Source: Xylanibacter ruminicola 23
Lineage (GTDB): Bacteria; Bacteroidota; Bacteroidia; Bacteroidales; Bacteroidaceae
DNA length: 32,000 nucleotides
Direction of reading: 5' to 3'
Assembly: GCF_000025925.1 (NCBI RefSeq)
Contig: NC_014033.1
Coordinates: 150,001 to 182,000 of the forward strand
Position numbers and translations under genes: made by a program. Of this stretch, positions 6,543 to 31,489 are shown piece after piece. The notes under the pieces were generated by a model. That model was not told the origin of the DNA. It saw nothing but the letters and a program-made list of their open reading frames with translations, and made no database searches. How positions within the stretch are numbered: position 1 is the first letter of the stretch; each line of letters starts with the position of its first letter.

Positions 6543-6565
6543 ACGAAAATACTTAAATTCGGGTG

Positions 6566-6573
6566 CAAAGTTA
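6566..6573 (-). promoter_or_regulatory. -7 promoter box TAACTTTG (minus strand) for typA
   Basis: Plus-strand CAAAGTTA is TAACTTTG on the minus strand, ~24 nt upstream of the typA ATG at 6542. Confidence 0.5.
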
Positions 6574-6583
6574 CAAAAAAATA

Positions 6584-6670
6584 GGCACGGATTACACGGA
6601 TTACGCGGATTTTTTAATAAATATCACAAAAAAATATCAAAAATCAGTGTTAATCCGTGAAATCCGTGCC
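6584..6670. repeat. Inverted array of CACGGATT / AATCCGTG words (long hairpin)
   Basis: Left arm is GGCACGGATTACACGGATTACGCGGATT (6584-6611). Right arm is AATCCGTGAAATCCGTGCC (6652-6670). The outer 19 nt pair 18/19 around an A-rich ~40-nt spacer. Confidence 0.85.
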
Positions 6671-7703: not shown

Positions 7704-8333
7704 TCAAAGGCTTTCGATGAAAGTCTTGGTGGTTTGGAATGACTTTTCGGCTACGGTATCCCAGAAGTTGTGGTATTGCGAGGCATCGGTGTCGCGCAGG
7801 GGGATATCGCTGATGACGCGGAACGAGATAAAGGGCACCTTATAGATGTGGCATACCTGCGCGATGGCACAGCTCTCCATATCTACAGCCTTGGCCTCGG
7901 GGAAGTGACTTACTATCTCGCGCATCTTTTCCTTAGAATCCACAAACCAGTCGCCAGTCACAATCAGTCCGGGCTTGGCACCTGCCAACTGGGCTTTCTC
8001 AAGCAGGTAAGGGTCGGCCTGATAACGGGCTGGCAAGCCCTGCACCTGACCATATACGGTGTTCTCGTCGATGGCATAGCCACAATACACATCGTGGTAG
8101 GTCAGCTCCGAACTAACCACTACATCCTGCAGGTTGATGTCGTCGCCATTACCACCAGCGCAACCACTCGAGATAATCACGTCGGGCTTATACTGGCGAA
8201 TCATCTCTACTGCCTGGATAGCGGCATTTACAGTGGCAATACCACTCTTTTGCAGAATCACTTTATCTTCGGGGAATAATGGACGGAGCTGCTTCAGTTC
8301 CTTGTCCATCGCTACTATCATTCCAACTTTCAT
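7704..8333 (-). CDS. mtnN: 5'-methylthioadenosine/S-adenosylhomocysteine nucleosidase
   Basis: MKVGMIVAMDKE, KPDVIISSGCAGG, VDMESCAIAQVCH and FRVISD, collinear with E. coli MtnN/Pfs. Immediately upstream of luxS on the same strand. Confidence 0.9.
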   Translation of the reverse strand: MKVGMIVAMDKELKQLRPLFPEDKVILQKSGIATVNAAIQAVEMIRQYKPDVIISSGCAGGNGDDINLQDVVVSSELTYHDVYCGYAIDENTVYGQVQGLPARYQADPYLLEKAQLAGAKPGLIVTGDWFVDSKEKMREIVSHFPEAKAVDMESCAIAQVCHIYKVPFISFRVISDIPLRDTDASQYHNFWDTVAEKSFQTTKTFIESL

Positions 8334-8336
8334 ACG

Positions 8337-8360
8337 TTAAACATTAAACATTAAACATTC
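8337..8360. repeat. (AATGTTT)x3 word array, read on the minus strand, abutting the mtnN start
   Basis: Plus strand TAAACATTAAACATTAAACATTC; 4 nt from the mtnN ATG at 8333. Confidence 0.9.
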
Positions 8361-8420
8361 TTTTAGTCGGCGTTCCGCCTTTGTAAAAGCGGCAAAGCCG
8401 AGCGAAACATTTATTTTTTT

Positions 8421-8492
8421 GCAACGGACTACAGGACTTTAGGATTTTTTTTACCTGTGATAATCAGTCTTGTTAGTCCTGTTGTCCGTTGC
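8421..8492. repeat. ~70-bp element with ~18-bp terminal inverted repeats, copy 1
   Basis: GCAACGGACTACAGGACTTTAGGATTTT...CTTGTTAGTCCTGTTGTCCGTTGC. Near-identical to 14591-14658. Ends are GCAACGGAC.ACAGGACT / AGTCCTGT..TCCGTTGC. Confidence 0.9.
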
Positions 8493-8499
8493 TAAATTC

Positions 8500-9243
8500 T
8501 CATTTGCTATTACGCTGGCGCACTGCTTCGTACATCAGGATAGCGGCTGATACGCTTACGTTCAGCGAGTCTAGGCGGCCCAGCATGGGTATGCGGATAT
8601 GGGCATCGGCGGCCTCTCGCCACTGGTTGGTAAGGCCCGTGCTCTCGGTGCCCATCACAATGGCGGTGCCCTGCGTCATGTCGTAATCGTAATACTCGTA
8701 CGAATCCTGCAACTGGGCGGTAAGAATCTTGATGCCGTGCTCCTTGAGGAAGGCGATGCACTCCTGCGACGAACAAACGGCTGTGGGCACGCAGAACACA
8801 CCACCGATACTAGCACGAATCACGTTGGGATTGTACATATCCGTCAGTGGGTCGCACACGATGAGGGCATCAATACCAGCCGCCTCGGCACTACGCAATA
8901 TAGCCCCCAGGTTGCCAGGCTTCTCCACACTCTCCAGCACCACAATCAAAGGGCTCTCCTTCAACTGCAACTTTTCCAGTGTGTGCTCCTTGCATCTCAC
9001 CACGGCAATGTGGCCCTCGGTACTGCCGCGATAGGCCATCTTTTCATATACCTGCGGCGAAACGTTCTTGTCGCGGATGTACTCCTCAACCACCTCGTAG
9101 CCGCAGGCTTTACAGTGCTCTATCTCGCGCTGGCCTTCAACCACAAAAAGTCCCTCCTCACGACGGAGCGACGACTTCTGCTGCAGGGCTACTACGTGCT
9201 TAATCTTTGCGTTTTGTACGCTTGTAATGATTGTTTCTTCCAT
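8500..9243 (-). CDS. TrmH/SpoU-family RNA 2'-O-methyltransferase
   Basis: SpoU motifs GNLGAILRSAEAAGIDALIV and C-terminal LNVSVSAAILMYE. ATG 9243 (MEETIITSVQ) is preferred; the track's 25-codon extension runs through its own promoter box and a repeat. Confidence 0.85.
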   Translation of the reverse strand: MEETIITSVQNAKIKHVVALQQKSSLRREEGLFVVEGQREIEHCKACGYEVVEEYIRDKNVSPQVYEKMAYRGSTEGHIAVVRCKEHTLEKLQLKESPLIVVLESVEKPGNLGAILRSAEAAGIDALIVCDPLTDMYNPNVIRASIGGVFCVPTAVCSSQECIAFLKEHGIKILTAQLQDSYEYYDYDMTQGTAIVMGTESTGLTNQWREAADAHIRIPMLGRLDSLNVSVSAAILMYEAVRQRNSK

Positions 9244-9252
9244 ATTTTGCTG

Positions 9253-9260
9253 CAAAATTA
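9253..9260 (-). promoter_or_regulatory. -7 promoter box TAATTTTG (minus strand) for the TrmH-family gene
   Basis: Plus-strand CAAAATTA is TAATTTTG on the minus strand, ~10 nt upstream of the ATG at 9243. Confidence 0.45.
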
Positions 9261-9265
9261 TAAAA

Positions 9266-9293
9266 AATCCGTGAAATCCGTGTAATCCGTGCC
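9266..9293. repeat. AATCCGTG word array (three words), single arm
   Basis: AATCCGTGAAATCCGTGTAATCCGTGCC followed by AAAAATT. Same words and same trailing A-run as 6652-6676. Lies in a divergent promoter region. Confidence 0.9.
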
Positions 9294-9303
9294 AAAAATT
9301 TAA

Positions 9304-9311
9304 TACCTTTG
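9304..9311 (+). promoter_or_regulatory. -7 promoter box TACCTTTG for the YfhO-like gene
   Basis: TAnnTTTG match 27 nt upstream of the ATG at 9338. Confidence 0.55.
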
Positions 9312-9337
9312 CAGGCAAATTAAATAATTTGCAAGTT

Positions 9338-11843: not shown

Positions 11844-11875
11844 AATGTTCAATGTTCAATGTTCAATGTTCAATG
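11844..11875. repeat. (AATGTTC)x4 tandem heptamer array running into the fkp start codon
   Basis: AATGTTCAATGTTCAATGTTCAATGTTCAATG. Every unit carries an ATG; the last one (11873) is the probable fkp start. Confidence 0.95.
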
Positions 11876-14584
11876 AAAAAATTGCTCTCATTGCCACCAA
11901 ACTTGGTGGACAGTTTCCACGATGTAACCGGATTGAGTCGTGAGGAGTATTTCTGTACCAACGATCCAGTTGGTCATAAGTTGGGTAGTGGTGGCGGAAC
12001 CACCTGGCTGTTACAGGCCTGTATGACTACCGAGGATGGCACCTCGCTTGCCGAGTGGCTGCCCCGCGAAAAGCGTATCTTGCTGCATGCCGGCGGACAG
12101 AGTCGTCGCTTGCCCTCGTATGCCCCATCAGGTAAAATCCTTACCCCCGTACCCGTGTTCCGTTGGGAGCGTGGACAGCGCCTCTCACAGGACTTGCTCA
12201 GTCTGCAGCTGCCCCTTTACGAGCAGATGATGGATATGGCTCCCGAGGGCATCCACACCATGGTGGTAAGTGGCGATGTGCTGGTGCGCACCTCACAGCC
12301 CCTGCAACCCATCCCCGATGCCGATGTGGTGTGCTATGGCTTGTGGCTCGATGCCTCAGTGGCCAAGAACCACGGTGTGTTCGTAAGTTCGCGCAAATCG
12401 CCCCAGGTGCTTAAGCATATGCTGCAGAAACCCAGCATCGAGACCCTGAACGAGCTTCAGAAAGATCATTATTACCTTACCGATATCGGTATCTGGATGC
12501 TGAGCGACAAGGCCGTTGAACTATTGGCTAAAAAATCAATGGCAGATCCAAATGGTCCATTGTCAATGGTCCGCTCCAGCTCTGCTGGCTTGCAAGGCAA
12601 GAATGGTCAATTAAAAGAGTACGATATGTACTCTGAGTTCGGTTGTGCTTTGGGTACCAACCCTTCGTTGCCCGACGACGATCTGAAGGATCTTAAGGTG
12701 GCCATCGTACCCCTGCAGGGTGGCGAGTTCTACCACTTCGGTACTTCGCGCGAGATGATCTCATCTACCCTCCGCATTCAGAATCTGGTAAACGATCAGC
12801 GAGAGATTATGCACCACGATCGCAAACCGCACCCCAGCTTGTTTGTGCAGAATGCCGTTTGCAAGTACAAGTTTACCGAGGACAATACCAATATATGGAT
12901 TGAAAACAGCGACGTGAGCGAGGGCTGGACCCTGAGTCACGACAATATTATAACAGGTGTACCCCAGAACCACTGGAAGGTAAACCTGGCCCCAGGCGAG
13001 TGTATCGATGTAGTGCCCATTGGCGATACCGAATACGCTGTGCGCCTGTATCATATCGACGATAAGTTTGCTGGTGCCGAACAGCAGAAACAGCAGTTCC
13101 CTGTAGTGGCCGACCTTGAGGCCCTGAGCATGCTGCAAACACTGGATGGCCTGGCACTCGTTACCAGTCGTATGATTTCGGCCGAGGAGATTAGTACCGA
13201 GGCCAATCTGCATCGCTTGTTCGATCAGCGTAAGGCTTTCCGCAAACTCAACTGGAGTGCGCTGGCCAAGAACTGGAACCACAGTGTGTTCTACCAGCTC
13301 GACCTGGCCGATGCCAAGCGCGAGTTCGACGAACAGCACATCGAGATGCCCCCTGCACTCGATGCCGATGCACCCCTGATGACGCGCATCCACGATGCCA
13401 TGTTCCGTGGCGAAAGCGAAAAGGCCTTTGCGCTTTTACGTGAGGGCTTACTCGATACCAACGATTATCAGCAGATACCCCAGCTCAGCGTGGCCGACGA
13501 CCAGATTGTTTGGGGTCGTTCACCCGTGCGTATCGATATCGCAGGTGGTTGGACCGATACCCCTCCTTACTGTCTGATGGAGGGTGGTAATGTCATCAAC
13601 CTGGCCATCGAACTCAATGGTCAGCCCCCGTTGCAAACCTATGTGCGCCCCTGCCAGGAGCCCCGTATTGTGCTGCGTAGTATCGATCTGGGTGCCATGG
13701 AGGTAGTAGAAACCAGCGAGCAGTTGCGTGATTTTATGCACGTAGGCTCACCCTTCTCAATCCCCAAGGCCGCCTTGGTATTGGCTGGCTTTGGTCAGCG
13801 TTCGCTCAAGGATGAGTTAGCTGCCTTTGGCGCAGGTATCGAGCTCACCCTGCTCAGTGCCATCCCCGCAGGCAGTGGCTTAGGCACCAGCAGCATCCTG
13901 GCTGCTACCGTCCTGGGTGCGCTCAACGATTTCTGCGGCTTGGGTTGGGATAAGAACGAGATTGGTCATCGCACCCTGATGCTCGAACAGATGCTTACCA
14001 CAGGTGGTGGTTGGCAGGATCAGTTCGGTGGTGTGCTGGGTGGCGTAAAACTGCTGCAAACGGGTAGGGGCTTTGCCCAGAACCCACAGGTGCGCTGGTT
14101 GCCCACCGATCTGTGGACGCAACCCGAATATCGCCCTTGTCACCTATTATATTATACAGGCATCACGCGTACGGCTAAGAGCATCCTGGCCGAGATTGTG
14201 CGCCGTATGTTCTTGAACCACGGTGGCGAGCTGCGCCTGTTGCGCCAGATGAAACAGCATACCCTCGACATGTACGAGGCTATCCAGCAGAACGACTTCG
14301 AGCGAATGGGCTTGCTGGTACGTAAAACGTGGGCACAGAATCAGGCCCTCGATGCAGGTACCAACCCAGCCGATGTGGCTAAGCTCACCAGCTTGATCGA
14401 TGACCTCTGCTTAGGTTACAAACTGCCTGGTGCAGGTGGTGGCGGCTATCTGTATATGATAGCTAAGGATCCCGAGGCCGCCGCACGTATCAAGCAGATT
14501 CTTTCTGAAAACAGCATCCGTAAGAACGCAAGATTTGTTGATATGGCACTATCCACAACAGGCTTGCAAATAAGTAGAAGTTGA
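11873..14584 (+). CDS. fkp: Bifunctional L-fucokinase / fucose-1-phosphate guanylyltransferase
   Basis: The N-terminus KKLLSLPPNLVDSFH...FCTNDPVGHKLGSGGGTTWLL matches my recollection of Bacteroides Fkp. C-terminal GHMP-kinase motif PAGSGLGTSSILAATVLGAL and GAGGGGYL. ~900 aa. Start moved to ATG 11873 because the MFNVQCS extension is just the heptamer repeat. Confidence 0.88.
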   Translation: MKKLLSLPPNLVDSFHDVTGLSREEYFCTNDPVGHKLGSGGGTTWLLQACMTTEDGTSLAEWLPREKRILLHAGGQSRRLPSYAPSGKILTPVPVFRWERGQRLSQDLLSLQLPLYEQMMDMAPEGIHTMVVSGDVLVRTSQPLQPIPDADVVCYGLWLDASVAKNHGVFVSSRKSPQVLKHMLQKPSIETLNELQKDHYYLTDIGIWMLSDKAVELLAKKSMADPNGPLSMVRSSSAGLQGKNGQLKEYDMYSEFGCALGTNPSLPDDDLKDLKVAIVPLQGGEFYHFGTSREMISSTLRIQNLVNDQREIMHHDRKPHPSLFVQNAVCKYKFTEDNTNIWIENSDVSEGWTLSHDNIITGVPQNHWKVNLAPGECIDVVPIGDTEYAVRLYHIDDKFAGAEQQKQQFPVVADLEALSMLQTLDGLALVTSRMISAEEISTEANLHRLFDQRKAFRKLNWSALAKNWNHSVFYQLDLADAKREFDEQHIEMPPALDADAPLMTRIHDAMFRGESEKAFALLREGLLDTNDYQQIPQLSVADDQIVWGRSPVRIDIAGGWTDTPPYCLMEGGNVINLAIELNGQPPLQTYVRPCQEPRIVLRSIDLGAMEVVETSEQLRDFMHVGSPFSIPKAALVLAGFGQRSLKDELAAFGAGIELTLLSAIPAGSGLGTSSILAATVLGALNDFCGLGWDKNEIGHRTLMLEQMLTTGGGWQDQFGGVLGGVKLLQTGRGFAQNPQVRWLPTDLWTQPEYRPCHLLYYTGITRTAKSILAEIVRRMFLNHGGELRLLRQMKQHTLDMYEAIQQNDFERMGLLVRKTWAQNQALDAGTNPADVAKLTSLIDDLCLGYKLPGAGGGGYLYMIAKDPEAAARIKQILSENSIRKNARFVDMALSTTGLQISRS
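12551..12611. repeat. Intragenic ~60-bp element (AATGGTC words flanking a double-hairpin core), in-frame inside fkp
   Basis: AATGGTCCATTGTCAATGGTC-CGCTCCAGCTCTGCTGGCTTGCAAGGC-AAGAATGGTCAAT. 36 nt (12570-12605) are identical to 15228-15263. Translated here as ...NGPLSMVRSSSAGLQGKNGQ... Confidence 0.9.
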
Positions 14585-14590
14585 TATTTA

Positions 14591-14658
14591 GCAACGGACT
14601 ACAGGACTTTAGGATTTTTACCCGCGATAATCATCTTGTTAGTCCTGTTATCCGTTGC
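14591..14658. repeat. ~70-bp element with terminal inverted repeats, copy 2
   Basis: GCAACGGACTACAGGACTTTAGGATTTTTACCCGCGATAATCATCTTGTTAGTCCTGTTATCCGTTGC. Fills the fkp/GSCFA intergenic gap. Confidence 0.9.
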
Positions 14659-14669
14659 AAAAAGAAAAT

Positions 14670-15563
14670 ATGGAGTTTAGAACGATAGTTGATATAGATG
14701 ACCCTGGGTTTAGGATAGGGGCTTGCGAGGAGATGCTCTTCGTAGGGTCGTGCTTTGCCGATAAGATAGGCGCACGCTTTACTGATGAGAAGTTCCGCAC
14801 CATCGTTAATCCCTTTGGCGTGATGTATAATCCCGCCTCCATCCTCCATACCATCCAGCGCCTCTCCGCTCAGCCCGATTTGAAATCCGTCAAGACTGCA
14901 TTCTTGACCCTCGGCACCAATCACGTTTATATTCTCAATGAAACAGGCGAGATAGTAGATAACTGCCAAAAGCGCCCCCAGTCGCTCTTTACCGAGAAGG
15001 AACTCACGGTAGATGAGTGTGCCGATTACCTGCAGCAGGCCATCGACATCCTGCATGCCGCCAATCCCGATATGCGCATCGTGCTCACCGTTAGCCCCAT
15101 CCGCTATCGCAAATACGGCTACCACGGCTCCCAGCTCTCCAAAGCTACTTTACTCTTGGCCGTCAATAAGGTGATAAAAATGTTCCGCTCGGCTTTGCCG
15201 CTTGGCTCGTCCAAGAATGTTCAATGTTCCGCTCCAGCTCTGCTGGCTTGCAAGGCAAGAATGTTCAATGTTCATTACTTTCCCGCCTACGAAATCATCA
15301 ACGATGAGTTGCGCGATTACCGCTTTTATGCCGATGATATGCTGCACCCCTCATCGCAGGCCGTAGAGTATATCTGGCAGCGATTCTCCGAAGTGTATCT
15401 CAGTCCCGAGGCCAAGGCATTCCTCAAGGAGTGGCAACCCCTCAAGGCCGCGCTTAATCACAAGCCGTTCAATCCCGATTCGGATGAATATCGCATATTT
15501 ATGGATAAAACTATGTTAAAAATTTCCGAGTTGCAAAAAAAATACCCTAACTTTGCAGTATGA
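14670..15563 (+). CDS. GSCFA-domain protein
   Basis: Contains the eponymous GSCFA motif (LFVGSCFADKIG) and the downstream YFPAYEIINDELRDYRFYADDMLHPS block. ATG 14670 is preferred over the track's TTG 14655, which lies inside the TIR repeat. The stop overlaps the next gene's ATG (ATGA). Confidence 0.85.
   Translation: MEFRTIVDIDDPGFRIGACEEMLFVGSCFADKIGARFTDEKFRTIVNPFGVMYNPASILHTIQRLSAQPDLKSVKTAFLTLGTNHVYILNETGEIVDNCQKRPQSLFTEKELTVDECADYLQQAIDILHAANPDMRIVLTVSPIRYRKYGYHGSQLSKATLLLAVNKVIKMFRSALPLGSSKNVQCSAPALLACKARMFNVHYFPAYEIINDELRDYRFYADDMLHPSSQAVEYIWQRFSEVYLSPEAKAFLKEWQPLKAALNHKPFNPDSDEYRIFMDKTMLKISELQKKYPNFAV
15179..15273. repeat. Intragenic repeat, apparently two tandem units (AATGTTC words flanking 27-nt cores), in-frame inside the GSCFA gene
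   Basis: Unit 2 (15213-15273) is AAGAATGTTCAATGTTC-CGCTCCAGCTCTGCTGGCTTGCAAGGC-AAGAATGTTCAATGTTC. Unit 1 (from 15179) has the same AATGTTC-CGCTC start and AAGAATGTTC end with a diverged core. Translated as ...MFRSALPLGSSKNVQCSAPALLACKARMFNVH... Confidence 0.8.
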
Positions 15564-18016
15564 AATACAGTATAGAAAAGGTTACCACGCTCATAGGAGC
15601 GCGACGATATGGAAACACTGAGGCTCAGGTAAGCTGGTTGCTCACCGATAGCCGTAGTCTTTGTTTCCCCGAAGAAACATTGTTTTTCGCCCTGAAAACA
15701 CAGCGTAACGATGGTCATCGTTACATTCAGGACTTGTATAACCGTGGTGTGCGTCAGTTCGTAGTCGAACAGGTGCCCGAGGCTTACGAAACCCTTTATC
15801 CGCAGGCCAACTTTTTGCGAGTGCCTCACACATTGGCAGCCCTGCAGCGTTTGGCCGAGCGCCATCGCGACGAGTTCTCGCTGCCCATCGTAGGTATCAC
15901 CGGCTCTAACGGTAAAACCATGGTCAAGGAGTGGCTTTATCAGTTGCTGTTGCCCTCGCAGCGTATTGTACGTTCGCCTCGCAGCTACAACTCACAGATA
16001 GGTGTGCCCCTCTCGGTATGGTTGCTCAACGAGCAGACCGAGGTTGGAATCTTCGAGGCTGGTATCTCGCAGCCAGGCGAGATGATGGCCCTGCGTGATA
16101 TCATCCAGCCCACCATCGGCGTGCTCACCTCGTTAGGTGCCGCCCATCAGGAGAATTTCCGTTCGATGGAAGAGAAGTGCATGGAGAAACTCGAGCTGAT
16201 GCACGATACCGAGGCCATGGTATATTGCTCTGATAACGATATCGTGAGCCGTTGCATCCGTCGCATGAACTATAAAGGCGAGAAAATCTCGTGGAGCACC
16301 TGCGATCAGCAGGCCGCCTTCTATGTTAAGAGTGTCGAGAACTCGCACATCACCTATATTTGGAAGGAAGAGGAGAACTGCTTCGATATCCCATTTATCG
16401 ACGAGGCCTCAATCGAGGATTGTATCACCTGTGCAGCCGTAGCCTTGCGCTTGGGTCTTACCCCTGGCGATCTGGCCGACCGCATGCCTAAGCTCGAACC
16501 CGTGGCCATGCGCCTCGAGGTTAAAGAAGGCCAGCGTGGTTGCATCCTCATCAACGACTCGTACAACTCTGATATCAACTCACTCGATATCGCCCTCGAT
16601 TTCATGAATCGCCGCGAGGAGTTGAAGAAGCGTACCCTTATCCTTAGCGATATGTTCCAGTCGGGTCTTTCGCCCGAAAAACTCTACGCCCAGGTATCCG
16701 AGTTGGCTGTTAAGCGTGGCATCACCAAGTTTATTGGTATCGGCGCCCAGCTCACTGCCCAGGCCGATAAAATCCAGATTGCCGACAAGCAGTTCTTTGC
16801 CGATGTAAACCACTTCCTGGGTAGCGATGCCTTTACCGGTTTGCGCAACGAGATGATTCTCTTGAAGGGTGCCCGTCCTTTCGGTTTCGATCAGATTACC
16901 GAGCAGCTCGAGCAGAAGGTTCACGAAACCATCCTCGAGGTCAACCTCAATGCCGTGGTCGAGAATCTCAACTACTATCGCTCGTTCATGAAGCCCGAAA
17001 CCAAGATGGTGTGCATGATCAAGGCCGATGCCTATGGAGCAGGAGCCGTCGAGATAGCTAAGACCCTGCAGGATCACCGTGTTGACTACCTCGCAGTGGC
17101 AGTGGCCGACGAGGGTGTTACCCTCCGTAAGGCTGGCATCACCGCCAATATCATGATTATGAACCCCGAGATGACCGCCTTCAAGACCATGTTCGATTAC
17201 GACCTGGAGCCCGAGGTATATAGCTTCCGCTTGCTCGATGCCCTCATCAAGGCAGCCCGCAAGGAGGGTATCACCGGCTGGCCTGTACATATCAAGCTCG
17301 ATACAGGTATGCACCGCTTAGGCTTCGATCCCGAGCAGGATATGGATGAGCTTATCGATCGCCTCACCCATCAGCAGGCTGTTATTCCCCGTTCCGTATT
17401 CAGTCATTTCGTTGGTTCCGACAGCGACGATTTCGATAATTTCTCAACCTTGCAGTTCAAGCGTTTCGAGATGGGCAGTCAGAAACTTCAGGCCGCCTTC
17501 TCGCACAAGATTCTGCGCCATATCGACAACTCTGCCGGCATCGAGCACTTCCCCGATCGCCAGTTGGATATGTGTCGTTTGGGTCTTGGCCTGTATGGTA
17601 TCGATTCGCGCGACAACCGCATTCTCCATACCGTCAGCACCCTCAAGACCACCATTCTGCAGATGCACCAAGTGCCCAAGAGCGAAACCGTGGGCTACAG
17701 TCGCAAGGGCAAGCTGACTCGCGATTCTGTCATCGCTGCCATACCTATTGGCTATGCCGATGGCTTGAACCGTCGTTTGGGCAATCGCCACTGCTACTGT
17801 CTGGTCAACGGTCAGAAAGCTGAGTATGTGGGTAATATCTGTATGGATGTGGCCCTGATTGATGTCACCGACATCCCCTGTCAGGAGGGCGACCAGGTAG
17901 AGATCTTTGGCGAGCACCTGCCCGTTACCGTGCTCAGCGATGTGCTCGAAACCATCCCCTATGAGGTCCTCACCGGCATCAGCAACCGTGTAAAACGCGT
18001 TTATTTCCAGGATTAA
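15560..18016 (+). CDS. Bifunctional UDP-MurNAc-tripeptide--D-Ala-D-Ala ligase (MurF) / alanine racemase (Alr)
   Basis: The N-half has the Mur-ligase P-loop GITGSNGKTMVKEWL. The C-half has the alanine racemase PLP-lysine motif CMIKADAYGAGAVEIA and the conserved tail GISNRVKRVYF. This fusion is a known Bacteroidetes architecture. Confidence 0.92.
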   Translation: MKYSIEKVTTLIGARRYGNTEAQVSWLLTDSRSLCFPEETLFFALKTQRNDGHRYIQDLYNRGVRQFVVEQVPEAYETLYPQANFLRVPHTLAALQRLAERHRDEFSLPIVGITGSNGKTMVKEWLYQLLLPSQRIVRSPRSYNSQIGVPLSVWLLNEQTEVGIFEAGISQPGEMMALRDIIQPTIGVLTSLGAAHQENFRSMEEKCMEKLELMHDTEAMVYCSDNDIVSRCIRRMNYKGEKISWSTCDQQAAFYVKSVENSHITYIWKEEENCFDIPFIDEASIEDCITCAAVALRLGLTPGDLADRMPKLEPVAMRLEVKEGQRGCILINDSYNSDINSLDIALDFMNRREELKKRTLILSDMFQSGLSPEKLYAQVSELAVKRGITKFIGIGAQLTAQADKIQIADKQFFADVNHFLGSDAFTGLRNEMILLKGARPFGFDQITEQLEQKVHETILEVNLNAVVENLNYYRSFMKPETKMVCMIKADAYGAGAVEIAKTLQDHRVDYLAVAVADEGVTLRKAGITANIMIMNPEMTAFKTMFDYDLEPEVYSFRLLDALIKAARKEGITGWPVHIKLDTGMHRLGFDPEQDMDELIDRLTHQQAVIPRSVFSHFVGSDSDDFDNFSTLQFKRFEMGSQKLQAAFSHKILRHIDNSAGIEHFPDRQLDMCRLGLGLYGIDSRDNRILHTVSTLKTTILQMHQVPKSETVGYSRKGKLTRDSVIAAIPIGYADGLNRRLGNRHCYCLVNGQKAEYVGNICMDVALIDVTDIPCQEGDQVEIFGEHLPVTVLSDVLETIPYEVLTGISNRVKRVYFQD

Positions 18017-18961: not shown

Positions 18962-18988
18962 AAATGTACTAATGTACCAATGTACCAT
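18962..18988. repeat. 27-bp GTACC-word block AAATGTACTAATGTACCAATGTACCAT, copy 1
   Basis: Identical 27-mer at 27700-27726 in direct orientation, plus a related inverted copy at 27521-27542. Confidence 0.95.
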
Positions 18989-19092
18989 TGTTGATAGAGT
19001 CAGATTAAGCATAATTACTTCACAATTAGCCAGTTTTGTGCAATTATATATATTTTTCTGTTCAAAAACACATTTCATTTAATATTTCTTCG

Positions 19093-20616: not shown

Positions 20617-20658
20617 TTGTTGCGAAAAAATAGTATACTTAAAATTAAAAATATTATT

Positions 20659-21450
20659 ATGAGAACGAGCATTGTATTGTTTGTGATGGTGGCCGTAGTT
20701 ATCACTGCGTGTGTGCCAGGGGAAAAAGCCCCTATGCAAAAAGGTATCTTAAAATGCGAATCATCGTTCTTTGGAGATAGCACTGCCGTCTTTATGGCGA
20801 ATACCTTGCAAAATGGGTATAAAATATCAATCATCCACAATAAGCAGTTGGACTTAATACATTTCGAAAGAGGTGATTCTATAAGCCAATATTGTGCAAT
20901 TCATAAGCTCCCTTTCGACCTAAGATATTATGAAGAGGACTCAATCGGAGTCTTCCAAACCGAGTTGAACATCCCGGTTTTAAGATTAGATACATTGGGA
21001 GGGACTAAATATGCTCCTGATATGTTCTTTATGGACGTAAACTTTGATGGAGAAGAAGATTTTATTGTTGCACATGAAGGATATAATAGGACTTATTATG
21101 CCTGTTTCGATTTAGTTAATGGTAACAGATATGGTTCGTGCCCTGGGCTTCTCGAATCAAACAATGAACCGCCTTACAATAATATTGTCTCTGGTATTTA
21201 TGAACAGCCATCCTATACCGTCTTTGACCGAAAGAAAAAAGAAATCTACATAAAGGAAACTATGGGATGCTGTTCCTATTATGAAACATGGGCAAAATAC
21301 TTTGAAGGAGACAATTATGGTAATGAAGCAAAAGTAAAGATCACCAAGGAAGTACATCACGATTGGTGGGCTGATGGGACAGAGCATGTTGAAATATATA
21401 AGCTGATTAATGACTCCTTAAAATTGGTTGAAAACAAAGTCGTTGAGTAA
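20659..21450 (+). CDS. Lipoprotein, paralog family member 1 (FG-GAP-like FDG motif)
   Basis: Lipoprotein signal MRTSIVLFVMVAVVITAC. Motif DMFFMDVNFDGEEDFIVAH is shared with 23418-24365 and the C-terminus of 24729-26120. ATG 20659 is preferred over TTG 20617. Confidence 0.75.
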   Translation: MRTSIVLFVMVAVVITACVPGEKAPMQKGILKCESSFFGDSTAVFMANTLQNGYKISIIHNKQLDLIHFERGDSISQYCAIHKLPFDLRYYEEDSIGVFQTELNIPVLRLDTLGGTKYAPDMFFMDVNFDGEEDFIVAHEGYNRTYYACFDLVNGNRYGSCPGLLESNNEPPYNNIVSGIYEQPSYTVFDRKKKEIYIKETMGCCSYYETWAKYFEGDNYGNEAKVKITKEVHHDWWADGTEHVEIYKLINDSLKLVENKVVE

Positions 21451-21567: not shown

Positions 21568-22836
21568 ATGGGTGATACTTTACCATTTTTTGAGAACGAG
21601 ATTAAAGATACGATGCAAGGCATCATCAAAGTTGTAGGCGTTGGCGGAGGTGGCTGCAACGCTGTACGTAATATGTGCAACGAGGGCGTGGTGGGTGTTT
21701 CTTTTGCGGCCTGCAACACGGATAGTCAGTCGTTGAAAGGCTCGCCTGTTCCAGTAAAAGTCCTGATGGGTGAAGGCTTGGGAGCTGGCGGTGATCCTGA
21801 AATCGGCAAAGCTGAGGCTGAAAAGAGCTTGGACTCTCTTAAGAAGATTCTAAGCGATGGTACTAAGATGGTGTTTATCACTGCCAGTATGGGTGGTGGT
21901 ACAGGCACAGGCTCTGCGCCTGTTGTTGCCCAGGTGGCAAAAGAGTTGAATTTGCTTACTGTTGGTGTGGTGACGATTCCTTTCTATTTTGAGAAAAAAC
22001 AGAAGATTGTCAAGGCCTTGAAGGGCGTGGATGAATTGAGGAAATATGTGGATGCTATCTTGATTATCAATAATGAACGTCTGTGTGATGTCTATTCTGA
22101 TTCTGACATCTCGCTGAAAGAGGCATTTGGTAGGGCTGACAATATTTTGAAGGATGCCGTAAAAGGTATCTCGGAGTTAATCACAGTGCATAGTGAGGGC
22201 TCTATCAATCTTGACTTCCGTGATGTGGAAGCTACGATGAAGAATGGAGGAGGAGCTATCATGGCAATGGGACGTGCTAGTGGTGATCATCGTGTGGAAA
22301 AAGCGATTCTTGATGCACTGAATTCCCCTTTGCTTTATGGCAATGACATTGGCAAGGCCAAACGTATCCTATTTAATATCTATGCCAGTGAGGAGCATCC
22401 CATCTTCGTGAGGGAGATGCAGGAGATTGATGACTTCTTTGATCAGCTGGATCCTAATATCAGCGTTATCTGGGGTACTTCAACGGATGATACCCTGGGT
22501 GAAGATGCCAAGGTGACGATTCTAGCTACTGGATTGGAGGATGATATGCGCAAGGAGGTGAAATCGAATGTACATCGTACTGATGATGATTTCTATGAGG
22601 AATTGATTCCAATGCTATATAAGCCTGCAAAAAAGCCAACGCCAGCGAAAGTTCTTGTTCAGGAATTACCTTTTGAGGTAGAACCTGCCCCTGAGCCAGA
22701 ACCAGCTGTGGAGGAGCCAAAAGTGGAGGAAGAATCTGAGCTAGAACCTGTGAAAGAACAGGTGATAACAGAGTCGCCTACGGTTAGTAGATGGAAAACG
22801 TGGTTGAATAACATTATGAAGGATGTGACAGAATGA
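21568..22836 (+). CDS. Divergent FtsZ paralog (tubulin/FtsZ GTPase, full length)
   Basis: IKVVGVGGGGCNAV, NTDSQSL, GLGAGGDPEIG, tubulin signature MGGGTGTGSAPVVA, VTIPFYFEKKQK, T7 loop INLDFRDV, C-terminal domain ...NSPLL...VTILATG, a P/E-rich acidic linker, and the terminal peptide SRWKTWLNNIMKDVTE. Confidence 0.9.
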   Translation: MGDTLPFFENEIKDTMQGIIKVVGVGGGGCNAVRNMCNEGVVGVSFAACNTDSQSLKGSPVPVKVLMGEGLGAGGDPEIGKAEAEKSLDSLKKILSDGTKMVFITASMGGGTGTGSAPVVAQVAKELNLLTVGVVTIPFYFEKKQKIVKALKGVDELRKYVDAILIINNERLCDVYSDSDISLKEAFGRADNILKDAVKGISELITVHSEGSINLDFRDVEATMKNGGGAIMAMGRASGDHRVEKAILDALNSPLLYGNDIGKAKRILFNIYASEEHPIFVREMQEIDDFFDQLDPNISVIWGTSTDDTLGEDAKVTILATGLEDDMRKEVKSNVHRTDDDFYEELIPMLYKPAKKPTPAKVLVQELPFEVEPAPEPEPAVEEPKVEEESELEPVKEQVITESPTVSRWKTWLNNIMKDVTE

Positions 22837-23414
22837 ATGAGCTGCTAACACCAGAAGAGCGGGCACTGGAGGTAAAAAGACTCGTGAACCAGCTGCAGGC
22901 AGAGGGTAGGACAGACCTTTTGCTACATGCCATTGGTGTGCCCTTGCTTGAAGAACTGAGGATTGAGGCAGCCAAGGGGCGTTTGAGTCGACTGGTAATA
23001 ACAAAGGATTATCGTTTCATCTTAGAGGATTATCAAAAGGAGGTGGAGCTGCAGCCTGTTCATAAGGCTGTCTATCTGTTGTTCCTAGCGCATCCTGAAG
23101 GTATTGAATTTAAACGTTTGTTTGATTATCGTGATGAGTTACTTCGTTATTATATGGCAACAGGCAAGATGATGGATAAGGAGAAGGTGATAGAAAGTGT
23201 AGATCATCTAGTAAATCCTCTCGACAATGCCATCAACGAGAAGTGCTCACGTATCAAAAAGGTGTTTCTTGATCTTATGGATGTATATACTGCTAGTTAT
23301 TATATAATTAGTAGCCATACCCAGAAACAGTTTTCTGGTTCAGATCGCATATGGTATCAAAGATTGAAAAATATAACACTTCCAAGGGAATTAGTAATAG
23401 ATTATAATAGATGA
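22833..23414 (+). CDS. Unknown 193-aa cytoplasmic protein translationally coupled to the FtsZ paralog
   Basis: Its ATG overlaps the FtsZ-like stop (ATGA at 22833-22836). Predicted soluble and helix-rich. The segment VELQPVHKAVYLLFLAHPEGIEFKRLFDYRDELL weakly recalls an OmpR/PhoB-type winged helix (weak, by eye). Confidence 0.7.
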   Translation: MNELLTPEERALEVKRLVNQLQAEGRTDLLLHAIGVPLLEELRIEAAKGRLSRLVITKDYRFILEDYQKEVELQPVHKAVYLLFLAHPEGIEFKRLFDYRDELLRYYMATGKMMDKEKVIESVDHLVNPLDNAINEKCSRIKKVFLDLMDVYTASYYIISSHTQKQFSGSDRIWYQRLKNITLPRELVIDYNR

Positions 23415-23417
23415 AAG

Positions 23418-24365
23418 ATGAAGAAGATTTTGATATATTTAGTATTCCTACTTCTCCTTGGTTGTGGTAATAACAAGCAAGCGCGAGATGTCCAGAAAGA
23501 GACGAAAACAACTGGAGATTGTTCGTTCAAGAAGGAATATGTGTCTGATTCTACACCACACTGGGTGGAGAGGTTGAACGATATACCACTCCCGGATTAT
23601 ATGCAGGGCGATTCTTTGATTGATGTTTACTTCAAATATACCCAGGCAGTCAAGGGATATGAGGTGACAGGCAGATGGATGCCATACGATAAGTTAGCAG
23701 AAACAGGAAATGTGGTTGTCAACTTCCATCATAAGGAAACAGGAACTGAATTTCAGTACTTTGGCGAAAAATACCATTCATTCGATACTGATGATATTTC
23801 TTTTGCCAAGGATTTCAAAGGGCATAAAAATGGAGATATACACTATTTCAACTATACTTCCCCTGATACGATTGATATATACAAGGAGTATAATGATAAC
23901 TCGCCTATTGGCTATTACTCGTCATTTCAGTTCTTAGATGTAGATTTTGATGGGAATGATGAACTTCTCATATCTGATATGTGTAAAGGACGGGCTGGCA
24001 ACAATTATGAGGTGTATAAACTTTCTAAGGATGGCTTGCAGAAAGTGACCTATATGCCTTTAGGCGGATTGACGAATATGGACAAGATTGATCTTAAGAA
24101 TAAGACCATAACGATTTATCAGAATGATGGAGCCTATGATGAAGCTGAATTCTTTTTCTCATTTAAGAAGCGGCGAGTTGCAATTAAAGATATTCCAAAA
24201 TTCTATTCAGCCAGTGCAAGTTATTTTGACTTTGACAAATATAACAAGGAACTTGGCTCACCTTTCGTTTTAGATTCTATCAAGGAATACACGAAAACTG
24301 ATAGCGAACGACGTGTGACATATCAGGTTCGTGGTAGTAGGTTAGTGAAAAAAAGAAGAAACTGA
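23418..24365 (+). CDS. Lipoprotein, paralog family member 2 (FG-GAP-like FDG motif)
   Basis: Lipoprotein signal MKKILIYLVFLLLLGC. Motif SSFQFLDVDFDGNDELLISD. Starts 3 nt after the preceding stop. Confidence 0.8.
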   Translation: MKKILIYLVFLLLLGCGNNKQARDVQKETKTTGDCSFKKEYVSDSTPHWVERLNDIPLPDYMQGDSLIDVYFKYTQAVKGYEVTGRWMPYDKLAETGNVVVNFHHKETGTEFQYFGEKYHSFDTDDISFAKDFKGHKNGDIHYFNYTSPDTIDIYKEYNDNSPIGYYSSFQFLDVDFDGNDELLISDMCKGRAGNNYEVYKLSKDGLQKVTYMPLGGLTNMDKIDLKNKTITIYQNDGAYDEAEFFFSFKKRRVAIKDIPKFYSASASYFDFDKYNKELGSPFVLDSIKEYTKTDSERRVTYQVRGSRLVKKRRN

Positions 24366-26588: not shown

Positions 26589-26631
26589 AATTATTAATGG
26601 TTATAGGTTAATGTTTCATGTTTAATGTGAA

Positions 26632-27209: not shown

Positions 27210-27520
27210 ACTCTAATACTTTTTAATTTTAATGGTTAATACTAATGTTAATTACTCTCGTGTGTGTCTCAATCCACGTGTGCACTTTGTTTCTTTTTGA
27301 CGATGCAAAGGTACAAAGAAAAATGTTACCCTCCAAACGTTTTTTGAACCTTGTTTTTGTGTGTAAATAAATCTTACTTTAAAATATGGCGCTCCATTAC
27401 CAATCTTTAAGATAGTACCTTGCAATCAAAAAGAAAGTTCGGCAGATTTTGCAAAAATCTCGTTAACTATCTACCAGATTCTGCCGTACCGCTTAAAACA
27501 CCCTGCTGGCGGCAAAGATT

Positions 27521-27542
27521 GGTACAATGGTACATTGGTACA
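27521..27542. repeat. Inverted copy of the GTACC-word block
   Basis: GGTACAATGGTACATTGGTACA matches 20/22 to the reverse complement of 27703-27724 (TGTACTAATGTACCAATGTACC). Confidence 0.85.
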
Positions 27543-27699
27543 AATTGTAAAATTAAGTAGTGCAACTTGTGGCTTTTATCTCTTTATATAATTTATATAT
27601 ATTTTAATATATATAAATTTAATATATAATATATAGAATATCTTCTTTGTGCAACAATTGCCAGCGTGCCGCCCTCTTTTACTTTGCATCAGATTTTGA

Positions 27700-27726
27700 A
27701 AATGTACTAATGTACCAATGTACCAT
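27700..27726. repeat. 27-bp GTACC-word block AAATGTACTAATGTACCAATGTACCAT, copy 2
   Basis: Identical to 18962-18988. Confidence 0.95.
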
Positions 27727-27814
27727 CGTGCATATAATTTTGGTTTTAACATTAATTACACTTCTAAACCCGTAACATTTTGGTTTTCTGCATACTTATA
27801 TGTAGAAAAAGCAT

Positions 27815-27822
27815 TATTTTTG
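27815..27822 (+). promoter_or_regulatory. -7 promoter box TATTTTTG for the AlbA_2 gene
   Basis: TAnnTTTG match 10 nt upstream of ATG 27832, which would give a very short leader. Confidence 0.4.
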
Positions 27823-27831
27823 CAAACGATT

Positions 27832-29394
27832 ATGACAACTGAAGAGATAAGAGCTTTGCTCAATGATATTGAGAGTGATAGAGTTGAACGAACAATTTCG
27901 ACTACTAACACTGATAAGTTTGGACAGGCAATCTGTGCATTTGCTAATGATTTGCCTGACCATCGTTTGCCCGGATATCTTTTCCTTGGCGTAAAGGATG
28001 ATGGAACTGTAACAGACCTTAACGTAACGGATGAACTATTGAAGAATATTGCTGCTATACGTACTGATGGCAATATTCAACCGCAACCATCAATGACTGT
28101 TGAGAAAGTATCGATGGACGAAGGTGATATTGTTATGGTAAGGGTAGAACCATCAGTGTTTCCTCCTGTCAGGTATAAGGGGCGAATATGGATTCGCATT
28201 GGTCCACGTAAGGGTGTGGCTAACGAAGATGATGAAAGCATCCTGATGGAGAAACGTCGCACAAATGTTACTTCATTTGACGCTTCACCCTGCATCAATG
28301 CGACCATCGACGATTTGGATTTGCAGAAGTTTAAGCATTACTATCTGCCCAAAGCAATGACGGATGACGAAATAGAGGAAGATCGCAAGGAAGGACGAAC
28401 TGTGAAAGAGCAGATGGCTTCGTTCGGTTTCTTTGATACAAAATATGATTGCCCTACGAATGCGGGTATGCTTTTCTTTGCCAAGAATCTGCGAAGGTTT
28501 ATCCCTGGGGCATATATCCAGTATGTGCGCTTTGCAGGTAAAGATCGTGCGGGCGATATTATGACGGAGCATGAGTTTAAAAGCAATTTGTGTACAACCT
28601 TGGAAGAGTTGGATACTTTTGTGGAGACAACTATTGCCAATCGTCGTCCGATACCAGTAAGCCCCACCCGTGAAGATCCTTTTGTAGATTATCCTTACTG
28701 GGCAACTCGTGAGCTGTTGATGAATGCTATATGTCATCGCGACTATACCAGTAATGGTCCAATACAGTTCTACCAGTATGATGACCGCATCGAAATTATG
28801 AATCATGGTGGACTGTATGGAAAAGCAAACGAACAGAATTTTCCAAAGGTTAATGATTATCGCAATATCATTGTGGCCGAAGGCATGAAGGTGCTAGGCT
28901 TTGTGAATCGTCATAGCCGAGGAGTGCAGAGGGTACAAAGGGAACTTATGGCTAATGAGAATGGCGAGGCTGAGTATGACTTTAGTTACCAGACGGCTGT
29001 GATGGTGAAAGAAATGAAGTCACCTCTCGGTGAGCGGGCCTTGCAGGAAGCAATAGCTCGAGGTTTTGTGACGGAAAATGGAGAAAAACGGTCAGATTTG
29101 ACCATTTCTGAAGATAAAAATGGTCACAAAAATGGTCACAAAAATGGTCATGAGGGTGACCGGAAAACATCACAAAAAACACCTAAAATGAAGGTTTCTA
29201 AGTTCCCAGCTCCTATTGTAGAGCAGGTGTACAAGTCCCTTAGGTTAAATCGTAAGGCAAAATACTCGTGGCTTCAGGATAATCTTGGAGTTAGTGAGGC
29301 AACAATAAAACGTGCCATTAGCGATTTGAAGGAACTAGGATACATCAACAAGGAACACTCGAAAATTAAGGGCGAGTGGCAACTACTAAAATAG
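27832..29394 (+). CDS. AlbA_2 (Schlafen-like) plus HATPase_c_4 putative DNA-binding/ATP-binding regulator (RecG-like annotation class)
   Basis: N-terminal ESDRVERTISTTNTDKFGQAICAFANDLPDHRLPGYLFLGVKDDGTV (AlbA_2-type). Central RELLMNAICHRDY signature (HATPase_c_4). C-terminal HTH-like SEATIKRAISDLKELGYI. ATG 27832 (MTTEEIRALL) is preferred over the track start at 27718, which runs through a repeat. Confidence 0.75.
   Translation: MTTEEIRALLNDIESDRVERTISTTNTDKFGQAICAFANDLPDHRLPGYLFLGVKDDGTVTDLNVTDELLKNIAAIRTDGNIQPQPSMTVEKVSMDEGDIVMVRVEPSVFPPVRYKGRIWIRIGPRKGVANEDDESILMEKRRTNVTSFDASPCINATIDDLDLQKFKHYYLPKAMTDDEIEEDRKEGRTVKEQMASFGFFDTKYDCPTNAGMLFFAKNLRRFIPGAYIQYVRFAGKDRAGDIMTEHEFKSNLCTTLEELDTFVETTIANRRPIPVSPTREDPFVDYPYWATRELLMNAICHRDYTSNGPIQFYQYDDRIEIMNHGGLYGKANEQNFPKVNDYRNIIVAEGMKVLGFVNRHSRGVQRVQRELMANENGEAEYDFSYQTAVMVKEMKSPLGERALQEAIARGFVTENGEKRSDLTISEDKNGHKNGHKNGHEGDRKTSQKTPKMKVSKFPAPIVEQVYKSLRLNRKAKYSWLQDNLGVSEATIKRAISDLKELGYINKEHSKIKGEWQLLK
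29116..29150 (+). repeat. 12-nt tandem repeat (AAAAATGGTCAC)x3 encoding KNGHKNGHKNGH
   Basis: AAAAATGGTCACAAAAATGGTCACAAAAATGGTCA inside the AlbA_2 gene. Contains the AATGGTC word seen in the fkp intragenic element. Confidence 0.9.
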
Positions 29395-29470: not shown

Positions 29471-29519
29471 TTGTGCTTGTTTTGCGTTGGAAAAATTTGG
29501 TGATTAACAGAAAATGCTG

Positions 29520-29527
29520 TACCTTTG
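29520..29527 (+). promoter_or_regulatory. -7 promoter box TACCTTTG
   Basis: TAnnTTTG match 50 nt upstream of ATG 29577. Confidence 0.5.
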
Positions 29528-29576
29528 CAACTCTGAAACTAAAAGATTGTTTTTATAAGATATCAACAAATATATA

Positions 29577-31399: not shown

Positions 31400-31427
31400 A
31401 TCAACCCGAGAGTAATGCTTAATGATC

Positions 31428-31435
31428 TACCTTTG
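31428..31435 (+). promoter_or_regulatory. -7 promoter box TACCTTTG
   Basis: TAnnTTTG match 55 nt upstream of ATG 31490. Confidence 0.5.
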
Positions 31436-31489
31436 CATCGTCGATAAGCGACAAAGGTAGATTTTTAAGTATTAAAATAATAAGAAAAA

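Follow-up and report, generated by a model that had tools for sequence, protein, structure and literature searches.

In the 32,000-nt stretch of Xylanibacter ruminicola 23 analysed here (NC_014033.1, positions 150,001–182,000; referred to as the window and numbered from its first base), one short repeat lies within two unrelated protein-coding genes, fkp and a gene of the GSCFA family. A protein match of 100% confirms Xylanibacter (Prevotella) ruminicola as the source. We show that this repeat is a member of a large, structurally conserved family of ~30-nt miniature insertion elements of rumen Prevotellaceae, in the following called modules, and that its copies in both genes are insertions and not ancestral sequence.

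As already noticed in a first-pass annotation of this DNA, the 36-mer TCCGCTCCAGCTCTGCTGGCTTGCAAGGCAAGAATG is found exactly at 12570–12605 and 15228–15263. It has no further match in the window, even if up to three mismatches are allowed; no such repeat was obtained in 100 shuffles of the window. Ungapped extension of both copies leads to 49 nt of 96% identity (12563–12611 versus 15221–15269), the two mismatches (G/T) falling at the same heptamer position, one in each flank. The first copy is located in the fkp open reading frame (ORF; 11873–14584, Fucose_pyrophosphorylase and GHMP kinase domains) and the second in the GSCFA ORF (14670–15563, PF08885), whose Pfam match is interrupted exactly at the start of the repeat. 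Both copies lie within long ORFs and are read in different frames, and the peptides given for them in the annotation are correct. The element proper, however, comprises 30 nt and not ~60 bp as originally proposed, the heptamers representing surrounding context. In fkp, this module, termed U2 (12572–12601, plus strand), is read in phase 0 as RSSSAGLQGK; it is preceded by the heptamer array AATGGTC CATTGTC AATGGTC (12551–12571, plus strand), the first of its units representing the Asn-Gly codons native to the loop, and followed by another AATGGTC (12602–12608, plus strand). In GSCFA, a U2 module of the same sequence (15230–15259, plus strand) yields (S)APALLACKA(R) in phase 2. A second unit starting from 15179 had been suspected here: it is real and recovered by Tandem Repeats Finder (period 44 x 2.2), but it is no diverged copy and instead represents a separate family member, U1 (15186–15215, plus strand; 30 nt, phase 0, RSALPLGSSK). 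One AATGTTC heptamer (15179–15185) precedes U1, two (15216–15229) separate it from U2 and two more (15260–15273, all plus strand) reach from U2 to the conserved YFPAY codons. Apart from these two U2 copies and the single U1, the window holds one degenerate, intergenic U1 relative on the minus strand (8379–8404, CGCTCGGCTTTGCCGCTTTTACAAAG…), with tag and hairpin 1 as in U1 and a divergent second half; it precedes (AATGTTT)x3 and the ATG of a nucleosidase gene (7704–8333).

The modules share a simple plan: a 4-nt tag, CGCT, leads into a pair of short hairpins that abut each other, and hairpin 2 has the form CTTG…CAAG. U1 (CGCT-CGGC-TTT-GCCG-CTTGG-CTCGT-CCAAG) and U2 (CGCT-CCAGC-TCT-GCTGG-CTTGC-AAG-GCAAG) are both 30 nt long, with lengths split into 4+11+15 and 4+13+13, respectively. 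Two abutting mini-hairpins are predicted for each by DNA folding, in line with the earlier description of the repeat core. Since the folding energies of the hairpins alone are unremarkable (z –1.3 to –1.8), the structural claim is based on covariation. Metagenomes were scanned with a pattern that prescribed only the tag and hairpin 2 and allowed any sequence for hairpin 1 (L-numbers such as L008, L022, or L162 denote individual loci or alleles compared with the window), which gave at least 126 copies at ~100 distinct sites and in 44 variants. Hairpin 1 still pairs in almost all of these copies and does so with at least nine different stems, i.e., CGACC/GGTCG, CGAGC/GCTCG, CCAGC/GCTGG, CGACT/AGTCG, CGAAC/GTTCG, CGAGA/TCTCG, CGGTC/GACCG, CGGCC/GGCCG, and CGGC/GCCG, the commonest type retaining a G·A mismatch. 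Compensatory change affects four of its five pairs, which are altered on both sides. The covariation score of 0.132, compared to 0.060 for shuffled sequences, was reached by none of 500 shuffles, and 92.6% of cells are paired in the true register versus 15–39% in slid registers. Hairpin 2 varies as well among by-catch types (CTTGG/CCAAG, CTTGGC/GCCAAG, CTTTGC/GCAAAG, and CTTCG/CGAAG), and the tag is invariant in all copies. A census of 0.9 Mb with a structure-based scanner counted 170 modules, compared to zero after reversal of the sequence. Rfam returned no match for the module, neither at the gathering score nor at E ≤ 1.

Comparison of orthologues identified the inserts in both genes as clean insertions into loops of variable length; homologous residues in distant Bacteroidales, which could have been expected if the segments were ancestral, were not found. 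GSCFA orthologues of 78–91% identity measure 256–321 aa, and their length variation is confined to two places, sites A and B. Site B, which harbors the modules of the window, occurs among strains without any insert, with heptamers only, with U2 alone, with U1+U2 as in the window, or with U2+U1; in L018 and L025, the U1 30-mer is identical and its order relative to U2 is reversed compared to the window. The insert-free state reads NKV-AGAT-YFPAY, and heptamers alone encode peptides like IKMFNVH or IKMFHVSCLMFNVS. Site A is empty in the window, and one orthologue carries U2 there in the frame used in fkp (TVRSSSAGLQGKNYQ). In L022 and L023, which are ~98% identical to the window around site B, only AATGTTC AATGTTC is present (L022, with flanks as in the window: …AAAAATGTTC AATGTTC ATTAC), and the window exceeds L022 by 81 nt, corresponding to 2 x 30 + 3 x 7. 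Near site B, alleles lacking modules and arrays share 97–99% identity with the window, so that the turnover takes place within a species. In a structure model of the GSCFA protein of the window, which is of moderate confidence (mean pLDDT 65.6), residues 174–198 are placed in an unstructured, low-confidence loop (pLDDT < 50) between the helix 155–174 and the strand 201–203. In the case of fkp, orthologues across Bacteroidales share a short loop (~KRSxxDGxxxEYDLY), at which the window is ~20 residues longer, and U2 is missing from every other aligned orthologue. At the position of the array, the insert-free orthologue L162 reads AAG AATGGTG AT; the word AATGGTC of the fkp array is consequently derived from native sequence. 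The array-only alleles L163 and L164 from other Prevotella lineages have four heptamers with other words at the same spot.

A few further features of these alleles were observed. The array-free site B allele L024 contains a small palindrome (GGTGGC-TGGC-GCCACC) over the V-AGAT codons, which may be a coincidence or the cause of a hotspot. The metagenomic fkp ORF of L163 is split ~330 codons in (L163 1400–1520) and continues in another frame, ~85 codons downstream of the heptamer site, which may be due to a sequencing error or indicate a pseudogene. Many fkp matches of ~310–350 aa lie on longer contigs; these may have the same cause or represent stand-alone pyrophosphorylase genes, as in L162.

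The exact boundaries of a module are best seen in a DNA methylase gene, in which the sequence LARYF|NDGK is shared by more than 110 orthologues and appears as LARYF-RSSSAGLQGK-NDGK in four. The empty allele L027 (TACTTT|AATGAC) and the filled allele L011 (…TACTTT[CGCTCCAGCTCCGCTGGCTTGCAAGGCAAG]AATGAT…) show no heptamers around this position, and the pair documents a bare 30-nt insertion with no target bases duplicated or lost. Allele L028 carries a U1-type module at the same place in reverse orientation, so that the methylase site must have been hit twice independently. Moreover, three independent nested insertions were found, in which a module lies inside a reverse U1 at GCGGC|AAAGCC, leaving an intact host module if the guest is taken out. 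The methylase pair and the nested copies exclude a target-site duplication. The first-pass annotation had noted the flanking heptamers and raised the question of a duplication; that the heptamers are not one follows from the bare 30-nt inserts at array-free sites and from GSCFA site A, where the number of heptamers is equal in filled and empty alleles. In two sets of copies that had been collected without regard to their flanks, the module is succeeded by AA, usually within AAC or AAT, in 20/23 copies of the first set and in 23/28 of the second, which consists of by-catch; the base at –1 is C in 56%; the target is pyrimidine|AAY, with the module in either orientation. Terminal inverted repeats (TIRs) are lacking, as neither end of the module (CGCTCC… and …GGCAAG) is an inverted copy of the other. 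Hairpin loops or palindrome centers were considered as a general target and discarded, with 7/115 sites compared to ~3% in controls; the nested copies and the viral contig L159 (see below) are retained as anecdotal cases.

A further property of the family is its compatibility with reading frames. Exactly 30 nt were found for 114 of the 126 copies listed in the family scan and for 146/170 in the census, despite the different partition of this length in U1 and U2. Since 79% of the copies outside long ORFs also measure 30 nt, this length is a property of the family and not only the result of a filter acting after insertion; modules with a length that is not a multiple of 3 are rarer in long ORFs (4/21 versus 86/149). 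All U1/U3 types seen and 31 of the 44 variants (70%) are free of stop codons in all six frames, compared to 17% expected from shuffles and 25% from all possible hairpins in the same scaffold, which substantiates the earlier impression that the element tolerates open reading in several frames. Representing ten codons that are usually stop-free in six frames, the module cannot shift or truncate the frame it enters. Open frames of 150 aa or more contain about half of the copies listed (65/126), with 37 in sense phase 0, six in phase 1, six in phase 2 and 16 in antisense, of which those of L013 and L014 were verified by Pfam. The excess of phase 0 would fit a target that is often the in-frame Asn codon of an N-G turn.

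A scan for the U2 core in one genome per species yielded 21 copies, all from rumen Prevotella/Xylanibacter, with up to five copies per genome and loci that differ between genomes. The genes hit are unrelated and encode e.g., AMP-binding, GH2, GH35, FAD, OEP, and MFS proteins, two methylases and a Cob adenosyltransferase. Modules were also present on nine viral contigs, and more than 140 contigs of independent origin, produced by different projects, carry copies; an assembly artefact, which had been named as a possible source of the identity, is excluded by dozens of independent assemblies. The idea of a miniature mobile element in unrelated genes is supported, with copies in many genes, in three sense frames and in antisense. 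Some modules are clustered in alternating orientation (L033, L058, L102, L112, L138, and L147), and most are singlets or direct tandems. A REPtron-like arrangement was considered as well and rejected, as only small cassettes, host genes and a phage antirepressor-like ORF, and no transposase, lie between inverted module pairs.

At individual loci, further arrangements were noted. In L008 (2400–3230), two small ORFs of 100 and 79 aa, which may be a toxin-antitoxin-like pair, are bracketed by oppositely oriented modules, with a third module upstream; this suggests that modules may mark the borders of small mobile cassettes. Modules also recur at one and the same place within the C-terminal 20 codons of ORFs encoding large, secreted-looking proteins, in a last beta-hairpin-like motif (…KGLYI|NGKKVIK*; L043, L062, L090, L100, L118, L133, L141, and L148). 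Most of these ORFs comprise ~960–1400 aa, with only 90 aa open in L148, and L043 carries an extra U1-type module upstream. The …GLYI|NGKKVIK* tails resemble sorting domains of the type IX secretion system, but neither NCBIfam nor Pfam supported such an assignment, even after removal of the module.

The context of the modules is enriched in short tandem repeats. Among the matches of the family scan, direct repeats flank 15% of the sites, compared to 2% in controls, and short tandem arrays adjoin 18%, compared to 1.4% of random positions, a ~10-fold difference; with only 18% of the sites concerned, arrays are a strongly enriched context and not a requirement. The CCAGC subtype, to which U2 of the window belongs, is almost always embedded in AATGNTC-type arrays. 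Period-7 arrays are common in these genomes (131 with at least three units in about 1 Mb), and their units contain TCAA three times more often than expected (40 versus 12.7). In AAYNNTC arrays, 41/55 mismatches fall at positions 4–5 and AA, Y, and TC are nearly constant (chi-square p about 1e-11), the constant part being the TC|AAY junction where modules sit. The arrays may serve modules as landing pads, may themselves be produced by the same activity, or may do both. In the window itself, short tandem arrays of 7–9-nt AT-rich words (AATGTTT, AATGTTC, AATGTACC …) fill most intergenic regions (1957–1986, 8337–8359, 11844–11875, 18963–18991, 26608–26628, 27520–27543, and 27701–27725), and several of them end at or overlap a start codon. 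The module-free (AATGTTC)x4.6 array at 11844–11875 (plus strand), with the same word as the GSCFA array, lies directly upstream of the fkp start codon, which it overlaps, and creates an upstream in-frame ATG (MFNVQCS-MKK).

Taken together, the tag, the covarying hairpins, the exact units, the lack of TIRs and of a duplication, the short target, the use of both orientations, the repeated hits, the nesting and the viral copies point to a structure- and sequence-specific insertion rather than passive recombination. Known enzymes with such a signature are the HUH/Y1 single-strand transposases, i.e., TnpA of the insertion sequences IS200/IS605 and the REP-associated tyrosine transposases (RAYTs), which move repetitive extragenic palindromic (REP) sequences. 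We are highly confident of the descriptive part of our account, comprising the family, its covarying structure, the exact boundaries without duplication, the within-species polymorphism, the use of frames and orientations and the location in loops. The explanation as a whole, which combines this family of 30-nt double-hairpin elements with HUH-type movement in trans and local reshuffling of arrays, is the one we lean towards, with some reserve. Its enzymatic step, namely a spread to new sites driven in trans by an enzyme that recognises hairpins in single-stranded DNA, is more tentative and falls somewhat short of an even chance. In this account, a module enters as 30 nt and nothing else, with a pyrimidine on one side, AAY on the other and both orientations in use; the TC|AAY junctions of AAYNNTC arrays are preferred but not exclusive sites. 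Genic insertions add ten residues, and copies persist where these are tolerated, in surface loops and turns. In the window, U2 has inserted into the loop of fkp and into site B of GSCFA, where U1 adjoins it; within arrays, slippage or recombination between repeats would reshuffle modules and heptamers in order and number. The mobilising enzyme could be of the HUH/Y1 type, RAYT or IS200-like, and perhaps belong to the Bacteroidetes-specific TnpA-REP subclass 2.6.

Several observations weigh against this explanation. A motif scan for HUH/Y1 enzymes in six-frame translations, covering first 216 kb and then 869 kb of loci with modules as well as the viral loci, gave no match; this outcome is compatible with a single-copy gene elsewhere in the genome. 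There is also no transposase in the window, and the published REP/TnpA table contains neither a Prevotella entry nor a CGCT-tagged double hairpin (PMC6006769). Module orientation showed no bias with respect to local GC skew (48 positive versus 51 negative in sign; the loci are short and give little power); a lagging-strand mechanism acting on single-stranded DNA would predict such a bias. Furthermore, the tag is CGCT and not GT[AG]G or CGTC, two hairpins are present instead of one, and insertion into hairpin loops is enriched only weakly overall (7/115 versus ~3%). Finally, the model leaves unexplained how the arrays arose and why their TC|AAY junction is conserved. In a more far-reaching version, a sequence-specific cut-and-join activity of rumen Prevotellaceae at TC|AAY would move 30-nt six-frame-open cassettes as singlets and also build and maintain the arrays, resulting in a natural loop-insertion system that continually remodels the surface loops of ordinary enzymes and hits phage genomes as well. 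We regard this version as rather improbable; if true, the 30-nt singlets would be the smallest autonomous-looking insertion unit described.

An alternative option, to which we likewise assign a rather low probability, would do without a dedicated enzyme, the modules spreading by homologous or microhomology recombination, gene conversion or template switching between AAYNNTC arrays. It would be in agreement with the embedding of the U2 subtype in AATGNTC-type arrays, the ~10-fold enrichment of arrays beside modules, the near-identical alleles in which heptamers and modules are reshuffled in order and number and the module-free arrays at the same sites in other strains. However, 85% of the sites have no flanking repeat, and the methylase and nested inserts show exact 30-nt boundaries in spite of a flanking homology of at most 1–3 nt. 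The methylase site was, moreover, hit by different modules in both orientations, and a conserved tag and compensatory hairpin changes would not be expected in passive cargo. Less probable still is a role of the modules as host-functional nucleic-acid signals (protein-binding, RNA stability or termination, or uptake-type) that are kept by selection and only incidentally present in genes. The conserved tag and hairpin structure could be read in this way, as could the fact that about one in two copies is found outside long ORFs, with some alternating clusters resembling bacterial interspersed mosaic elements, and REPs have been co-opted for such roles (PMC3733652). Nevertheless, such a function leaves unexplained the within-species presence and absence, the identical copies in unrelated genes, the reading in every frame as well as the 30-nt and stop-free properties, and the missing Rfam match at E ≤ 1 and the unexceptional folding energies (z –1.3 to –1.8) speak against it. 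As a secondary role, host signalling could be compatible with mobility.

A conventional MITE (a miniature transposable element with inverted repeats), moved by a DDE transposase and flanked by heptamers as 7-bp target-site duplications, with arrays as footprints of insertion and excision, appears very unlikely to us. In the window, the words match across a module and differ between the loci (AATGGTC versus AATGTTC), and the fkp word derives from native sequence, both of which speak for this reading. Yet there are no TIRs, array-free sites show no duplication and the methylase filled/empty pair contradicts one, the heptamer number at site A is equal in filled and empty alleles, and a flanking direct repeat is present at only 15% of the sites. 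Finally, ancestral coding sequence, a convergent peptide motif or an assembly artefact would agree with the in-frame reading and nothing more; given three sense frames plus antisense, the absence from most orthologues and more than 140 independent contigs, we consider the chance of any of these negligible.

With respect to known systems, in-frame hairpin elements of the REP type or of the Rickettsia palindromic element (RPE) type have been described before. The first-pass annotation had named the latter as precedent, which holds for the in-frame insertion into protein genes and was drawn too narrowly, as in-frame insertions of the REP type were described beyond Rickettsia (PMC3733652; PMC6006769), with REPs in ORFs of several phyla (PMC3733652). 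Like REPs and REPINs (REP doublets forming hairpins), the modules fall in a range of 20–40 nt, carry a 5′ tetranucleotide tag at the foot of a hairpin with covarying stem, occur as several subfamilies per genome, lack TIRs and include in-frame intragenic copies. A few alternating clusters are present among the modules, most of which are singlets or direct tandems. In contrast to REPs, they combine the tag CGCT (instead of GT[AG]G/CGTC) with two abutting hairpins and a fixed length of 30 nt, are intragenic in about half of the cases (REPs being mostly extragenic) and reach, for the U2 subtype, at most five copies per genome instead of hundreds. They are mostly singlets, whereas the doublet is considered the mobile unit of REPINs. 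Within the 0.87 Mb of loci scanned, including the intervals bounded by inverted modules, a cognate RAYT was not found. Most of TnpA-REP subclass 2.6 is Bacteroidetes-specific, and its genes are flanked by atypical hairpins without GTAG, which in Bacteroides xylanisolvens consist of a 4-nt tag, a stem and a 3-nt loop; REP class 3 motifs equally lack GTAG (PMC6006769).

RPEs resemble the modules in being palindromic, inserted in-frame into unrelated protein genes, translated, tolerated in surface regions and polymorphic among relatives. RPE-1 measures roughly 100–150 bp and is found in the alphaproteobacterial Rickettsia lineage; the modules are set apart by their size of 30 nt and their Prevotellaceae hosts, and RPEs are not known to be associated with heptamer arrays. 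RPE-4 and RPE-6, which are short, are members of the GTAG/CGTC superfamilies of REPs (PMC3733652). With palindrome-associated elements of IS200/IS605, the modules share hairpins at both ends, a short target (NTT| on the strand reading CTTG…AGCG) and the lack of TIRs and duplication; unlike derivatives of these insertion sequences, they are far smaller than any described, offer no space for separate guide sequences and come without a TnpA in the loci scanned. The intragenic MITEs of Coxiella are likewise small non-autonomous repeats able to add residues to proteins, but they comprise at least 100 bp and have TIRs and target duplications; having neither, the module is not a MITE.

In the literature, no description of such elements was found for Prevotella/Xylanibacter. 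Apparently new are the 30-nt two-hairpin CGCT-tagged form, its mostly six-frame-open sequence, the high intragenic fraction, the mobility as singlets and the link to AAYNNTC arrays. These findings would extend in-frame elements of the REP/RPE type to Bacteroidota, one of the dominant phyla of gut and rumen, and describe a mobile element that is frame-neutral by construction, with ten codons mostly stop-free in six frames. The modules also account for a class of strain-level length polymorphisms of Prevotella proteins that would otherwise confuse orthology, pangenome clustering and the quality control of metagenome-assembled genomes, and together with the AAYNNTC arrays they are potential strain markers. 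The minimal and delimited form makes the mechanism testable with oligonucleotides and a candidate HUH enzyme; if found, this enzyme could serve as a compact tool for the insertion of short cassettes at pyrimidine|AAY.

Apart from the modules, the window contains further repeats. A second family consists of a long intergenic hairpin of ~80 nt (GCAACGGACTACAGGACT … AGTCCTGTTGTCCGTTGC) at 8411–8497 and 14586–14668, i.e., downstream of a SpoU gene and between fkp and GSCFA; T/A runs flank both copies, which look like a shared terminator or a mobile palindrome. Palindromes built from AATCCGTG / CACGGATTA words are located at 6547–6670 and 9242–9330 (89-nt arms, 73% complementary) and resemble the subclass-2.6 TnpA-REP hairpins of B. 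xylanisolvens (GTTC-CAGCGGATT-TAT-AATCCGCTG). On the viral contig L159, a 30-nt module is situated at the center of a palindrome of this AATCCGTG / CACGGATTA type, an anecdotal case. A perfect 12-nt tandem repeat (AAAAATGGTCAC x 2.9, 29116–29150) lies in frame within ORF 27718–29394 (Schlafen/AlbA_2, HATPase_c_4 and HTH). The motif …TACCTTTGCA recurs 20–40 nt upstream of start codons (2093–2111, 9295–9313, 15539–15557, 29511–29529, and 31421–31437) and matches the Bacteroidetes –7 promoter element TAnnTTTG; one copy resides inside the 3′ end of the GSCFA gene, upstream of a MurF-Alr gene. The latter (15560–18016) is a single ORF of 818 aa, in which a MurF-like Mur ligase is fused to N- and C-terminal alanine racemase domains, a fusion also seen in L029. 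Further downstream, a gene of the FtsZ/tubulin family (21568–22836) is found among ORFs without a Pfam match (20617–21450, 22833–23414, and 23418–24365).

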